Translations under genes and position numbers: made by a program
Assembly (NCBI GenBank): GCA_947573445.1
Contig: CANPFR010000002.1
Location: forward strand, 42,675-106,674
Direction: 5' to 3'
DNA: 64,000 nt
Source: an uncultured Clostridia bacterium
GTDB lineage: Bacteria > Bacillota > Clostridia > TANB77 > CAG-508
Notes under the pieces: model-generated
What the model saw: the letters and a program-made list of their open reading frames with translations, nothing else
What the model was told of the DNA's origin: nothing
Database searches by the model: none
Shown here: positions 4,487 through 48,275 of the stretch, in pieces
Numbering within the stretch: the first letter of the stretch is position 1
Layout: each line of letters starts with the position of its first letter

Positions 4487-4574
4487 TTATGGCTCTCTAA
4501 CGCATTCTGTGGCGTTTTTTGATGTATTTATATGAAAATGAATGATTTTTCATTCAAAAATGCAAAAAAACACC
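4487..4574 (+). repeat. dispersed intergenic repeat family 1, copy A (two hairpins: aacgc..gcgtt and aatgaatgatttttcattc)
   Basis: Shares about 85-110 nt with copies at 20991, 36869, 39326, 45080 and 48195. Confidence 0.55.
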
Positions 4575-4625
4575 AATAAAGGGGCGACCTTAGTCTCCCC
4601 CTTTATTGGTTGTTTTTGCTTTTTA
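4571..4625. terminator. rho-independent terminator downstream of nifS (bidirectional)
   Basis: caataaagggg...cccctttattg stem with T-runs on both sides. Confidence 0.55.
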
Positions 4626-4723
4626 TTTAAACCTAGAAATTTTTCTCCAGTCTCTATTTTCCCCTCTTTTTTATCTTAACATTATACTAACTTTTTAATT
4701 CATGTCAATTATTTTAAAAAAAA

Positions 4724-5875
4724 TCACCTTAACTTTTTCACAATTTTTACCAAATTTCCCACCAAATAATCGACATCTTCCACCGTATTTTCTCTTCCAA
4801 ATGTAATTCTTAAACTACTTCTGGCAATACTAGCTGGAACTCCAATTGCCAACAAAACATGCGATGGATTTAATAGACCTGCACTACAAGCCGAACCGCT
4901 TGATGCACAAATTCCAACTTTGTCTAATTCTTGTAGCATTTTTCCACCATCAACACCTTTAAAACAAATATTAGCATTACCAGGCAGACGATTTTCCAAA
5001 TCACCATTTATTCGAATAAATGGAATTGTTTTTTCAACACTTGCAAAATAATATTCTCGAAGACTTTTTAATTTTTTATTGTAATCTTCCAATTCATTTT
5101 GAGCAATTTCAATTGCTTTACCAATCCCAATAATCCCTGCAACATTTTCTGTGCCAGATCTTTTATCACGCTCTTGATGGCCACCATCTTGCATTCTGAT
5201 AAAATTAACATTATCACTAATATACGCAGCTCCAATTCCTTTTGGTCCATAAAATTTATGAGCTGACATAGACAAAGCAGAAATCCCCAACTTTTTCACA
5301 TCAATATCTATATTCCCAATTGCTTGAACCGCATCTGTATGAAAATAGACCCCATATCGATTAGCCATTCTTCCAATTGCCTGTATCTCTTGAATGGTTC
5401 CAATTTCGTTATTAGCAAACATAATGCTGATTAGAATCGTCTGTCTGTTTATGGCTCTTTCTAGTTCTTTTAAATCAACTCTTCCTTGAGAATCAACATT
5501 CAGATACGTTACTCTAAACCCCATATATTTTTCCAAAAAATCGCATGTATTTAGAACAGCTGGATGTTCGATTTTGGTAGTAATGATATGATTGCCTCGT
5601 CTTCTGTTTGCAATTGCAATTCCTTTGATAATTAAATTGTCACTTTCAGTTCCTCCACTTGTGAAATAAATCTCATTTAAATTACATTTCAAAGCATTTG
5701 CAACTCTTGTTCTAGCCACTTGAATGGCTTCTTTATTATTTTTTCCAATACCATACATAGATGAAGCGTTTCCAAAATTCTCTGTCAAATATGGCATCAT
5801 TTCATTTAATACTCTATTATCAATTGCTGTTGTAGCAGCATGATCAAAATATCTAATATTCTGCATAATTTCCAA
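4724..5875 (-). CDS. nifS: cysteine desulfurase, class V aminotransferase (NifS/IscS-like)
   Basis: 383 aa with PLP-lysine motif SMSAHKFYGPKGIGAAYI, HTDAVQAIG, and an active-site loop SSGSACS. Confidence 0.85.
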   Translation of the reverse strand: MEIMQNIRYFDHAATTAIDNRVLNEMMPYLTENFGNASSMYGIGKNNKEAIQVARTRVANALKCNLNEIYFTSGGTESDNLIIKGIAIANRRRGNHIITTKIEHPAVLNTCDFLEKYMGFRVTYLNVDSQGRVDLKELERAINRQTILISIMFANNEIGTIQEIQAIGRMANRYGVYFHTDAVQAIGNIDIDVKKLGISALSMSAHKFYGPKGIGAAYISDNVNFIRMQDGGHQERDKRSGTENVAGIIGIGKAIEIAQNELEDYNKKLKSLREYYFASVEKTIPFIRINGDLENRLPGNANICFKGVDGGKMLQELDKVGICASSGSACSAGLLNPSHVLLAIGVPASIARSSLRITFGRENTVEDVDYLVGNLVKIVKKLR

Positions 5876-45192: not shown

Positions 45193-45264
45193 TATCGGAA
45201 AAGGCAAACCGAAATTTCCCCTTTCCTTGGTTGGTTTTGTTTTTTATTATTCTTGATTATACTT

Positions 45265-47955
45265 TTATTTGGTCTGATACCAACTTTTTCCTTCCTGTAA
45301 ATCAACTTCTAATTGAACTGATAATTCAGCTGCATTTTCCATACATTTTCTTAAAATCTCACTTACTTCCTCTTTTTCACTCTCCAAAGCTTCTATGATA
45401 AGTTCATCATGAATTTGTAACACAATTTTAGATTGTAAGTTTCTGTGTTTTAGTTCACGGTACACATGAAGCATTGCAATTTTCATAATATCAGCTGCTG
45501 TTCCCTGAATAGGTGCATTCATAGCTACTCTGTCACCAAATTTCCTCACCATATAGTTATTTGAACTAATCTCTGGAATGTACCTTCTTCTGTGAAACAT
45601 GGTTTCTACATATCCTGCCTCTTTCGCATTTTGCATCGCTTGTTCCATAAATTCCTCAATTCCATGATATTTTTCCAAATAGGAATCAATGTATTGCTTG
45701 GCTTCTTTTCTTTTAATACCAAGCTGTTCTGCCAAACCAAAATCACTAATCCCATACACAATTCCAAAATTAACTGCTTTGGCATGATTTCTCATCTCTT
45801 TTGTTACCTTATCAAGAGAAACACCAAATACTTGAGAGGCACAAATTTTATGAATATCGTTGTGTTCTTGAAAAGCACGAATCATAATTTCATCTTGTGA
45901 CATATGGGCAAGCACACGAAGTTCAATTTGAGAATAATCTGCATCTAAAAATACATTTCCTTTTTCTGCTTTAAACAGTTTTCGAATTTTCTTTCCCAAA
46001 TCAGTTCGAGTTGGAATGTTTTGTAAATTGGGATCAGAACTACTAAGCCTTCCTGTCGCAGCTACTGTTTGATGGAAACTCGTGTGAATTCGGTTGGTCT
46101 CAGGATTGATAAATGGAAGCATTCCTTCCACAAAGGTAGAATTCAATTTAGCCACTTGTCTATAAAATAAGACTTTTTCTATTATAGGATGTGTTTCTCT
46201 TAGTTTTTCTAAGGTGTCTACATCTGTTGAATAGCCATTTTTGTTTTTCTTTTTATAAGGCAATTCTAATTTTTCAAATAAAATTTCTCCTAACTGCTTT
46301 GGGGAATTGATATTGAATTCCTGACCTGCTAAAGCATAAATTTCCTGACTAATTTGGTCAATTTCCAATTTCAACTTTTGAGACATCTTTTCTACCTCAT
46401 TTTTATCCACAAAGACACCTGTATAACGCATTTCTGCTAATACCTCACAACATGGCATTTCAATGGTTTGAAACAATTCCAATTGATTTAATGCTTGCAA
46501 TTTCTCTTCTAAAATCGCTTTGGAAGCCCCAATCACATAACTATACATTGCATATTGATAAGAAAAATTTTCTTCTTGATTTTCATTGTCAAAAAAACTG
46601 GTTTGCACATTTTCCTGCTTTTCTTGTTTATAATAATCTTCTAATTCCATACTCAAATGTTGTTTGGCAACTTCTTCTAAAGAATATAGATTTGTTCCAG
46701 AATTTAGCAAATACATAGCAATTCTAGTATCAAACATCATGTTTTGTGGTTGCAAACCTGCTTGTTTTAATAAAATGTAGTCTTCTTTTATCTGATAACC
46801 ACATTTTAAAATAGCTGGATTTTCAAAAATTTCTTTCCCTATTTCTAACCCAAAAGGAAGGACATATACTTTTTTCTCTGTCGGCAAATACACATTAACT
46901 TTCCTAATTCTTTGTTTAATTAATAAACCAGTTTCATCTGCCACAGTTTCAAAATAATAATAAACTTCTTTTTGAGAGTTGATGACTTCTGAAATTTGAT
47001 CGATTTGACTATTTGGAATCAGTTCAAACAAATCCTCCATCTTTTTTTCTGTGTCAGAATTTTCGGTTTCTTCTAAATGAAAACGTTCAATAAATCGTTT
47101 AAAACGTAATTCTTTAAATAATGCTAAAACCTTTTCTCGATCCCAAGGCTCAACCTTAAATTCCTCTAATGATTTTTCAATTGGTGCCTTTTGGTCGATT
47201 GTACCAAGTGTTCTTGAAAGATAGGCTAATTCTTTATTTTCAACTAATTTTTCCTTTTGTTTGCCTTTGATATCTGGATCACCTTTTTCAATTGCTTCGT
47301 ATAATTTATCCAGATTTTTATATTTTTGAATAAGATGTAAGGCCGTTTTTTCACCAATTCCAGGTACCCCTGGAATATTATCCGAAGTATCCCCCATTAA
47401 TCCTTTTACTTCAATGAGCTGTTCTGGTGTAACCTGATACGTTTCCTGCACTTTTTGGTCATCAAAATCTTCCATTTCTGTTTTGCCTTGCTTAGTCCTT
47501 GGCATTCTAATAATGACATTCGATTTGGCTAATTGAAAAGAATCACGGTCTCCTGTTAACAAAATAACTTTAAGTCCCTTTTTTTCTCCCCAATTGCTTA
47601 ATGTTCCTAAAATATCATCTGCCTCATAACCTGGCTTTTCAAGTACCTTTATTTTCATCGCTTCTAACACATTTTTAAGAATTGGCATTTGAACTGCTAA
47701 TTCATCTGGCATTCCTTTACGTGTTCCCTTATATTGACTATACATTTCATGCCTTTTGGTAGGCGATTTTACATCAAAGGCAACAACCAAATATTCTGGA
47801 TTTTCGTCTTCTATCATACGAAACATGATGGTTAAAAAACCATAGACAGCATTTGTATACGTTCCGTCTGCAGTCTGTAGCATTTTGTTTCCCATAATAC
47901 CATAAAATGCTCGGTTTAAGATACTATTTCCATCAATAACGATTAATTTTTCCAA
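45265..47955 (-). CDS. polA: DNA polymerase I
   Basis: 896 aa with 5'-3' exonuclease domain, 3'-5' exo-like domain and polymerase motifs A/B/C (DYSQIELR, RRxAKxxNFGxxYG, QIHDE). TTG start with GGGAGG RBS. Confidence 0.9.
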   Translation of the reverse strand: MEKLIVIDGNSILNRAFYGIMGNKMLQTADGTYTNAVYGFLTIMFRMIEDENPEYLVVAFDVKSPTKRHEMYSQYKGTRKGMPDELAVQMPILKNVLEAMKIKVLEKPGYEADDILGTLSNWGEKKGLKVILLTGDRDSFQLAKSNVIIRMPRTKQGKTEMEDFDDQKVQETYQVTPEQLIEVKGLMGDTSDNIPGVPGIGEKTALHLIQKYKNLDKLYEAIEKGDPDIKGKQKEKLVENKELAYLSRTLGTIDQKAPIEKSLEEFKVEPWDREKVLALFKELRFKRFIERFHLEETENSDTEKKMEDLFELIPNSQIDQISEVINSQKEVYYYFETVADETGLLIKQRIRKVNVYLPTEKKVYVLPFGLEIGKEIFENPAILKCGYQIKEDYILLKQAGLQPQNMMFDTRIAMYLLNSGTNLYSLEEVAKQHLSMELEDYYKQEKQENVQTSFFDNENQEENFSYQYAMYSYVIGASKAILEEKLQALNQLELFQTIEMPCCEVLAEMRYTGVFVDKNEVEKMSQKLKLEIDQISQEIYALAGQEFNINSPKQLGEILFEKLELPYKKKNKNGYSTDVDTLEKLRETHPIIEKVLFYRQVAKLNSTFVEGMLPFINPETNRIHTSFHQTVAATGRLSSSDPNLQNIPTRTDLGKKIRKLFKAEKGNVFLDADYSQIELRVLAHMSQDEIMIRAFQEHNDIHKICASQVFGVSLDKVTKEMRNHAKAVNFGIVYGISDFGLAEQLGIKRKEAKQYIDSYLEKYHGIEEFMEQAMQNAKEAGYVETMFHRRRYIPEISSNNYMVRKFGDRVAMNAPIQGTAADIMKIAMLHVYRELKHRNLQSKIVLQIHDELIIEALESEKEEVSEILRKCMENAAELSVQLEVDLQEGKSWYQTK

Positions 47956-48194
47956 ATTTACCTCCCGTTTTTATCAAAAAACTTCTTTTATTTTTTTATT
48001 TTATCATGCTTGATTTTAAATAGCAATCAAAATTTGTTTTTTTCTAAAAACAACCTAATCTTTGCTAAAATTTCATCAGTAACGCCGCTAATCGCGTTTT
48101 AACGAGATTTTAATGTCTTTTTCAAGAAACTTCATTGACTTAAAAAACAAAACCCCCTTCTTGGCAATTCTAGTGCCTTATTTCCAAAATCCAT

Positions 48195-48275
48195 TTTTCT
48201 CATACCATATCTTTTTATGCCTCTGTAACGCATAAAAACAAGTCAAAAATGAATTTTTTTCATTTTTTAGTCATT
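48195..48275 (+). repeat. dispersed intergenic repeat family 1, degenerate copy F
   Basis: cataccatatctttttatgcctctgtaacgcataaaaacaagtcaaaaatgaatttttttcatttttt. Confidence 0.4.

Follow-up and report, generated by a model that had tools for sequence, protein, structure and literature searches.

The stretch analyzed here, referred to as the window, comprises 64 kb of contig CANPFR010000002.1 from an uncultured Clostridia bacterium. Its G+C content is 31%, the GC skew is strongly negative on the plus strand, and nearly all genes are carried by the minus strand. They are ordinary genes for the chromosome of a Clostridia-type spore former and include rny, ltaS, nfo, polA, mreB, infC-rpmI-rplT, a nifS-like gene and, preceded by a T-box, pheST. 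The nearest public relatives are uncultured Clostridia metagenome-assembled genomes (MAGs), with identities of 91-93% for RNase Y, 78-82% for PolA and 74% for LtaS. Between these genes lies a family of short repeats, for which an earlier note on this DNA had listed six copies with two hairpins and had offered three identities: a REP/BOX-like element, a miniature mobile element or a small-RNA gene family. We characterized the repeats in the window and in loci from related Clostridia MAGs (L007, L013, L040, L041 and L042).

Repeat copies in the window

The repeats are real and form a significant family. All six copies listed before were recovered at their positions: an nhmmer profile built from the five full copies (c1-c5) gave E = 6e-22 to 5e-24 at 4466-4561, 20981-21076, 36859-36954, 39337-39432 and 45086-45181, and E = 5e-4 for the degenerate sixth copy (c6) at 48195-48233. 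Two consensus 20-mers with up to 3 mismatches yielded 6 and 4 matches, compared with 0.05 and 0.01 expected from shuffles. Repeat-finding and blastn recovered the family independently, with pairwise identities of 78-84% over 100-160 nt. Including a seventh copy (c7) and one inverted relic, the window holds 8 copies, a density of about 1 per 8 kb; all are intergenic, and none contains a conserved open reading frame (ORF). The repeat units span 110-175 nt at 25-33% G+C. Copies c1 and c4 are alike over 173 nt (4403-4575 and 39274-39446), and the unit therefore extends further to the left than previously given. In c7 the middle part is replaced by an unrelated 12-bp hairpin. The coordinates are collected in Table 1.

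Each window copy is located 22-150 nt past the stop of a minus-strand gene. The terminator at 4565-4617 precedes c1, and rny's own promoter follows about 320 nt downstream; c2 is found about 275 nt upstream of the window's only MRKSKGITLIALV... surface-protein gene. The GC-rich stems that had been reported to follow the repeats are indeed present beside c1, c4 and c5 on the plus-strand 3′ side, but they belong to the neighbouring minus-strand genes, whose bidirectional terminators they form.

Table 1. Positions of the repeat copies and associated features in the window
Feature	Position	Strand	Remarks
c1	4403..4575	-	core 4457-4572; extension to 4403 common to c4
c2	20964..21070	-	without T-rich 5′ part; begins 28 nt past stop of ORF 21098-21526
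c3	36850..36965	-	between 3′ ends of convergent ltaS-like gene 37108-39060 (minus) and ORF 35607-36743 (plus)
c4	39274..39446	-	core 39321-39444; directly past nfo-like terminator, about 200 nt upstream of ltaS promoter 39118-39090
c5	45069..45192	-	occupies gap between polA terminator (45193-45243) and infC promoter 45046-45018
c6	48175..48300	-	second subtype: right part ATAAATGACTAAAAAA, internal deletion; upstream of polA promoter 48026-47998
c7	54140..54264	-	c6 subtype; between convergent genes 53238-53891 (plus) and 54286-54675 (minus)
Degenerate inverted copy	16444..16538	+	between ORFs 15324-16226 and 16567-17112; E 1.6e-5, wider profile
Near-invariant 20-nt block AAAATGAATGATTTTTCATT	36930..36947		palindrome GAATGA-N4-TCATTC; overlaps -35 hexamer position
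Central hairpin AACGC-loop-GCGTT (c1 example)	4499..4516		just past -10-like hexamer; only in c1-c5
Surface-protein gene	19405..20688	-	begins MRKSKGITLIALVITIIVLLILAGVSL..., Flg_new repeat
Own promoters downstream of copies	rny 4083-4055; ltaS 39118-39090; infC 45046-45018; polA 48026-47998	-

Promoter-like layout and copies in related genomes

The common orientation of the copies described in the earlier note was confirmed, but the repeat is not to be read on the plus strand: the informative strand is the minus strand, the same as that of the genes, because homologous gene-linked copies in relatives run from hexamers through a leader to a ribosome-binding site and ATG. Read in this direction, a full copy consists of a T-rich start past the neighbour's terminator, an AATGA-NN-AAT(G/C)A box, the hexamers, a short leader and a vestige of a start-codon region, 'GAAAAATG'. 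A table of the hexamers shows the -35-like and -10-like elements exactly 17 nt apart in all copies. In the window they are degraded (TTCATT-N17-TAAAAC, TTCTTT-N17-TAAAAA or TTCATT-N17-AAAAAC); a sigma-A promoter scan makes no call at them, and the last -10 position is not T. Hexamers of the sigma-A type are found in the L040 element (TTGATT-N17-TAAAAT), and the L042 element carries TTAATT-N17-TAAAAT. The 'GAAAAATG' sequence is common to all window copies; the alignment places it at the start-codon region of the relatives, and the ribosome-binding site is deleted in the window copies. Counting window and relatives together, 12 of 14 distinct copies run in the same direction as the genes beside them (two-sided binomial p about 0.013, hand arithmetic).

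The genes downstream of c1, c4, c5 and c6 have their own promoters, which are of the kind usual in this DNA (TTGACA-like, 17 nt, TAAAAT), that of rny being kept in relatives without the element, and both c3 and c7 are located between convergent genes; the copies are therefore not promoters of their neighbours. The neighbouring genes share no function.

A covariance model, likewise built from c1-c5, found copies in the relatives at L007 4066-4171, L040 2652-2758 (E 5e-5) and L042 17388-17474. A wider profile later run on the window and the relatives' loci added L040 18225-18333, L042 16133-16232 and L013 6387-6481 (inverted); all three were confirmed by alignment and are orphans resembling c6 and c7, including the sequence past the ATG position. 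The remaining three of the six immediately precede surface-protein genes. Some copies in relatives thus are the immediate upstream region of such genes, with good sigma-A-type hexamers, a ribosome-binding site and ATG. The element-linked products begin MKK[CY][KR]GITLIALVITIIVLLILAGVSL... (N-terminal form MKKxKGITLIALVITIIVLLILAG), followed by variable parts that in L040 and L042 are PARCEL/DUF285 repeats. The single MKKxKGITLIALV gene of the window, starting at 20688 and carrying a Flg_new repeat, has the N-terminal module that is encoded directly after the element in relatives.

The order in the relatives is promoter, leader ORF of 26-36 aa, small hairpin, strong terminator, element, ribosome-binding site and ATG. 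Since the terminator is directly upstream of the element, the L040 gene needs the element's promoter. The leader ORF MKNVVKEFKKISQSLGAVHTHTHVVL is found upstream of the element-linked surface-protein genes at L007 3886-4073, L040 2442-2659 and L042 17255-17395; its (CA)n tract comprises about 13, 5 and 3 units, respectively, the small hairpin and strong terminator lie behind it, and the ORF is absent from the window. The (CA)n leader with its terminator resembles an attenuator switch of the slipped-strand, translation-coupled type. Leader, element and surface-protein gene together occur as one unit at two different loci with 87% identity (L040 2495-3840 and L042 17239-18570), namely between mreB and miaB in L040 and between ymdB and spoVT in L042; L042 stems from the same sample as L041, which covers the L040 locus. 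Neither L013 nor the window has the unit in its mreB-miaB spacer, and the gene cassette itself therefore moves or is duplicated. L042 also contains an IS256-family (Transposase_mut) insertion sequence at 4439-5928 with inverted ends TAGAAAAAGTTGTGTAAA. These ends are unrelated to the repeat family, and its transposase was rejected as a partner of the element.

Ten of the 14 distinct copies (8 from the window and 6 from relatives) are orphans and 4 are gene-linked, c2 being counted among the latter; orphans occur in every genome sampled. The density in the relatives is roughly 1 copy per 30 kb over about 190 kb of non-redundant sequence, a rough estimate from locus lengths. Orphans c1-c4 share non-coding sequence past the ATG position, and so, separately, do c6, c7 and L040 18225-18333; the orphans have therefore multiplied as non-coding units. 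No remnant of the surface-protein N-terminal coding sequence was detected beside orphan copies by tblastn, and local alignment scores were no better than shuffles. We accordingly rejected the idea that the orphan tails are decayed surface-protein N-termini. At three syntenic sites the spacers measure 439 versus 140 nt (c6), 395 versus 30 nt (c7) and 365 versus 51 nt (c3) in window and relatives, respectively. The relatives' spacers are thus 300-365 nt shorter, and the flanks do not align.

Hairpins, conservation and further sequence features

Both hairpins of the earlier note are present in c1-c5, but they are not family-wide. Neither occurs in c7 or in the six copies of the relatives, and c6 retains a variant of one only (AATGAA-N5-TTCATT), one arm of the AACGC/GCGTT hairpin being lost. 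The covariation analysis that had been proposed for the two stems showed weak covariation. The AATGAA/TTCATT hairpin (GAATGA-N4-TCATTC or, in the other register, AATGAA-N6-TTCATT) is identical throughout c1-c5 and therefore without covariation information. We found one compensatory pair in the AACGC/GCGTT hairpin and two, both from c1, in a possible outer stem ATACCTTA/TAAGGCAT. In total, 3 pairs of 20 show double changes, and values as high as those observed arise in 20-34 of 500 column shuffles. G-U cells give no clear strand preference. The hairpins are not features of the family, which is decisive against the hairpin interpretation.

The most conserved part of c1-c5 is the AAAATGAATGATTTTTCATT block over the -35 position, which recurs at 4537-4554, 21052-21069, 39408-39425 and 45157-45174. 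It shows 1 substitution in 100, compared with 16.7% elsewhere; columns 67-90 contain 8/120 substitutions versus 55/330 elsewhere (Fisher p = 0.006). According to the alignment, the palindrome of the window copies derives from the relatives' AATGA-NN-AATGA box via two G-to-C changes, both of which raise its symmetry. [quoted passage not shown]

Database searches yielded no known counterpart. Rfam gave no match at any copy even at E = 10, its sole match in the window being the T-box leader at 27065-27287 on the minus strand upstream of pheS/pheT (98 bits, exceeding the gathering score). A blastn search against plasmids and phages found nothing and two viral scans gave chance matches only. Exact-pattern scans of genome and metagenome contig collections returned one and two chance matches that share just the searched 27-mer. 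Sporulation, extracytoplasmic function (ECF), sigma-54, sigma-D and sigma-H promoters as well as the operator consensus sequences of Fur, Rex, ArgR, CcpA, CodY and PlcR were judged by eye only, and none fits in spacing and sequence. An IS200/IS605-type origin would involve two similar subterminal hairpins; it was rejected, the two present here being unrelated to each other and not shared by the whole family, and so was a group II intron or retron origin because there is no Rfam match. The repeated unit of REP/BIME elements is a GC-rich imperfect palindrome of 20-40 nt; the present unit exceeds 100 nt at 25-33% GC, and its palindromes are not family-wide. A recombination cassette of the Mycoplasma type does not agree with copies spread across 50 kb of housekeeping genes and with no recombinase domain among the approximately 40 window ORFs scanned.

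Several other features were observed in the window. Next to c6 lies one of two copies of a second repeat family (48255-48381 and 51615-51745, 77% identity), a palindromic unit of about 100 nt in which arms GTAAAAAAC...GTTTTTTAC surround an inner hairpin GAGAAATTTTGGGCA-TT-GCCCAAAATTT. Each copy directly follows the stop of a minus-strand gene, and these repeats are therefore terminator-like. Between the nifS-like gene and c1, there is a near-consensus promoter TTGACA-N16-TATAAT at about 4708-4680 on the minus strand; behind it come about 100 nt that contain no ORF and then the strong bidirectional terminator at 4565-4617. This unit (4570-4710) has no Rfam match and is a candidate for a small transcript. 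In-frame tandem repeats occur within ORF 58533-59354 (45-nt unit, about 10 times, 58664-59293) and ORF 49889-50266 (39-nt unit, 4 times, 49892-50086). Two pairs of direct repeats, 7115-7159/8863-8907 (73% identity, spacing 1748 nt) and 7357-7399/8912-8954 (81%, 1555 nt), are located upstream of two small minus-strand ORFs and may stem from local duplication of an upstream region.

Nature and origin of the family

We regard it as somewhat more likely than not that these sequences are small, non-coding interspersed repeats that make up a clade-specific family, BOX/RUP/Correia-like in kind, unusually dense here, with a promoter-like core and mostly inert in this genome. The family is new but of an ordinary kind. 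With regard to the three identities offered before, a REP/BOX-like or miniature mobile element fits best to copies that are dispersed, non-coding and lineage-enriched; a small-RNA gene family is not supported. MITEs are about 50-500 bp in length, lack coding capacity and occur in many dispersed copies; the repeat corresponds to this with its 110-175 nt, 8 copies in 64 kb plus 6 in relatives, and no conserved ORF. In the scenario that we favor, the window copies would have spread in this lineage as units without coding sequence, inserting where this is tolerated, between a terminator and the promoter that follows. With TTCATT-N17-TAAAAC and a deleted ribosome-binding site they would be non-functional or weak derivatives, and the gene-linked copies of the relatives would have been reused as portable promoter-leader modules, as with Correia elements. 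The two palindromes of the c1-c5 subtype are probably derived features of that subtype, the 20-nt palindrome perhaps being the most conserved because it is a cis-site needed for copying or a protein-binding site. Amplification and extensive decay of the element in this genome is the best-supported reading.

A number of points weigh against a mobile repeat. Terminal inverted repeats are not consistent: the ends show AT-rich similarities of 10-18 nt that differ between copies (for example 18 nt at 78% in c5, 45057-45074/45154-45171). No target-site duplication was readable, as even the nearest relatives differ too much in their intergenic DNA for an alignment, and the comparisons with shorter, potentially empty spacers did not define insertion borders. 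The scan of roughly 40 window ORFs revealed no transposase. The copies are 78-84% identical, and any burst is therefore not recent. Furthermore, the promoter of the surface-protein genes could have come first and the repeat second.

In this last case the sequence would have begun as the promoter-leader of the MKKxKGITLIALV surface-protein genes, and the orphans would be by-products of duplication, ectopic recombination or cassette loss. This is unlikely in our view, but it is the alternative that deserves most attention. Three of six copies in relatives are placed upstream of this gene family, as is c2 at about 275 nt; good hexamers are confined to gene-linked copies; and the leader-element-gene unit sits as an insertion between mreB and miaB in L040, is missing there from L013 and the window, and has a duplicate (87%) at a second locus, L042. 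On the other hand, the conserved N-terminal coding sequence has left no trace beside any orphan, and the non-coding sequence after the ATG position that is shared among c1-c4 and, separately, among c6, c7 and L040 18225-18333 indicates copying from orphan templates. Orphans also outnumber gene-linked copies by 10 to 4 (c2 as gene-linked) and are present in every genome sampled. We give a little less credence to a related idea, in which the element is a portable promoter-leader module that the clade uses to wire variable surface-protein genes, the (CA)n leader and terminator serving as the slipped-strand, translation-coupled attenuator switch, and the orphans of this genome would be a reservoir of landing or recombination sites, or operator sites for a regulator that binds the palindrome, rather than junk.

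It is improbable that the copies are regulatory sites of the host, i.e. a regulon, roadblock or insulator sites in which the invariant palindrome GAATGAAAAATCATTC would be the operator of a dimeric DNA-binding protein. A near-invariant 20-nt block in an element that has otherwise diverged by about 17%, its position over the -35 site and the two G-to-C changes that each improve symmetry over the relatives' box would suit such an operator. However, the neighbours (rny, ltaS, infC, polA) are functionally unrelated and are served by separate promoters at a distance of 40-400 nt, convergent genes flank two of the copies, the palindrome is missing from c7 and from all copies of the relatives, and a cis-site of a mobile repeat predicts the identical conservation pattern. 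More improbable still are genes for a family of small regulatory RNAs, read from the plus strand, as the earlier note had considered, or from the minus strand. Single copies are predicted to fold somewhat more stably than shuffles (z = -1.4 to -5.5), on the plus strand T4-T7 comes after the central hairpin and a CU-rich stretch before it, and three G-U cells favor the plus strand; yet two A-C cells favor the minus strand equally. The Rfam result even at E = 10, the lack of a conserved sigma-A-like promoter in front on either strand and the inconsistent terminators also speak against RNA genes, as do an invariant hairpin 2, a hairpin 1 with one compensatory pair, an outer stem whose two pairs come from a single copy, and the loss of both hairpins in c7 and the relatives. 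Least probable of all do we consider terminator-like or insulator repeats selected at gene ends, similar to pneumococcal SPRITE. The location of every window copy 22-150 nt past a minus-strand stop and weak hairpin plus T-run motifs on both strands point in this direction, but the stems comprise only 5-8 bp, the scan calls no terminator in c3 and c4, the two copy regions where the element itself was scanned, and proper terminators already adjoin c1, c4, c5 and c6. In the relatives, moreover, the element is placed after a strong terminator and before a gene.

Interspersed repeats with comparable properties have been described in other bacteria. Correia repeat-enclosed elements, a MITE of Neisseria, are likewise short, non-coding and present in many intergenic copies; they carry sigma-70-like promoter sequences able to drive neighbours, and some copies are found directly upstream of genes (PMC10969869). 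According to the literature they possess clear terminal inverted repeats and a target duplication, neither of which is demonstrated here. The present repeat shares no sequence similarity with them, comes from a different phylum and has a strong orientation bias. Pneumococcal BOX, RUP and SPRITE resemble it as AT-rich Firmicute interspersed repeats of less than 200 bp, modular in the case of BOX, that are enriched downstream of genes, are restricted to one species and, at lower density, its closest relatives, and are unclear in function (PMC3049150). In contrast, BOX and RUP have terminal inverted repeats, target duplications and tight folding and SPRITE has an 18-bp duplex with a U-tract, whereas our family lacks a family-wide hairpin and shows a promoter-leader layout with fixed 17-nt hexamer spacing. 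The 5′ cassettes of the Mycoplasma vsp/vpma genes share a conserved non-coding stretch directly upstream of the start codon of a surface-gene family, and also the combination of a conserved N-terminus with a variable, repeat-rich C-terminus (PMC2268961), the latter represented by PARCEL/DUF285 in L040 and L042. They differ in that an Xer-type recombinase encoded next to them uses them for recombination, within one gene cluster with a single promoter. The present copies are dispersed in direct orientation among essential genes, mostly with no surface-protein gene behind them and with no recombinase nearby.

Small interspersed repeats are poorly catalogued beyond a few pathogens, and the finding adds a family from uncultured gut-type Clostridia. 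In practical terms, its copies will seed false calls in small-RNA, promoter and operon annotation and can break assemblies of such MAGs. One and the same sequence occurs as a working promoter-leader in front of surface-protein genes in some genomes and, in another, as orphans decaying among housekeeping genes; these two states make it a clean illustration from nature of the exchange between selfish repeats and regulatory DNA.

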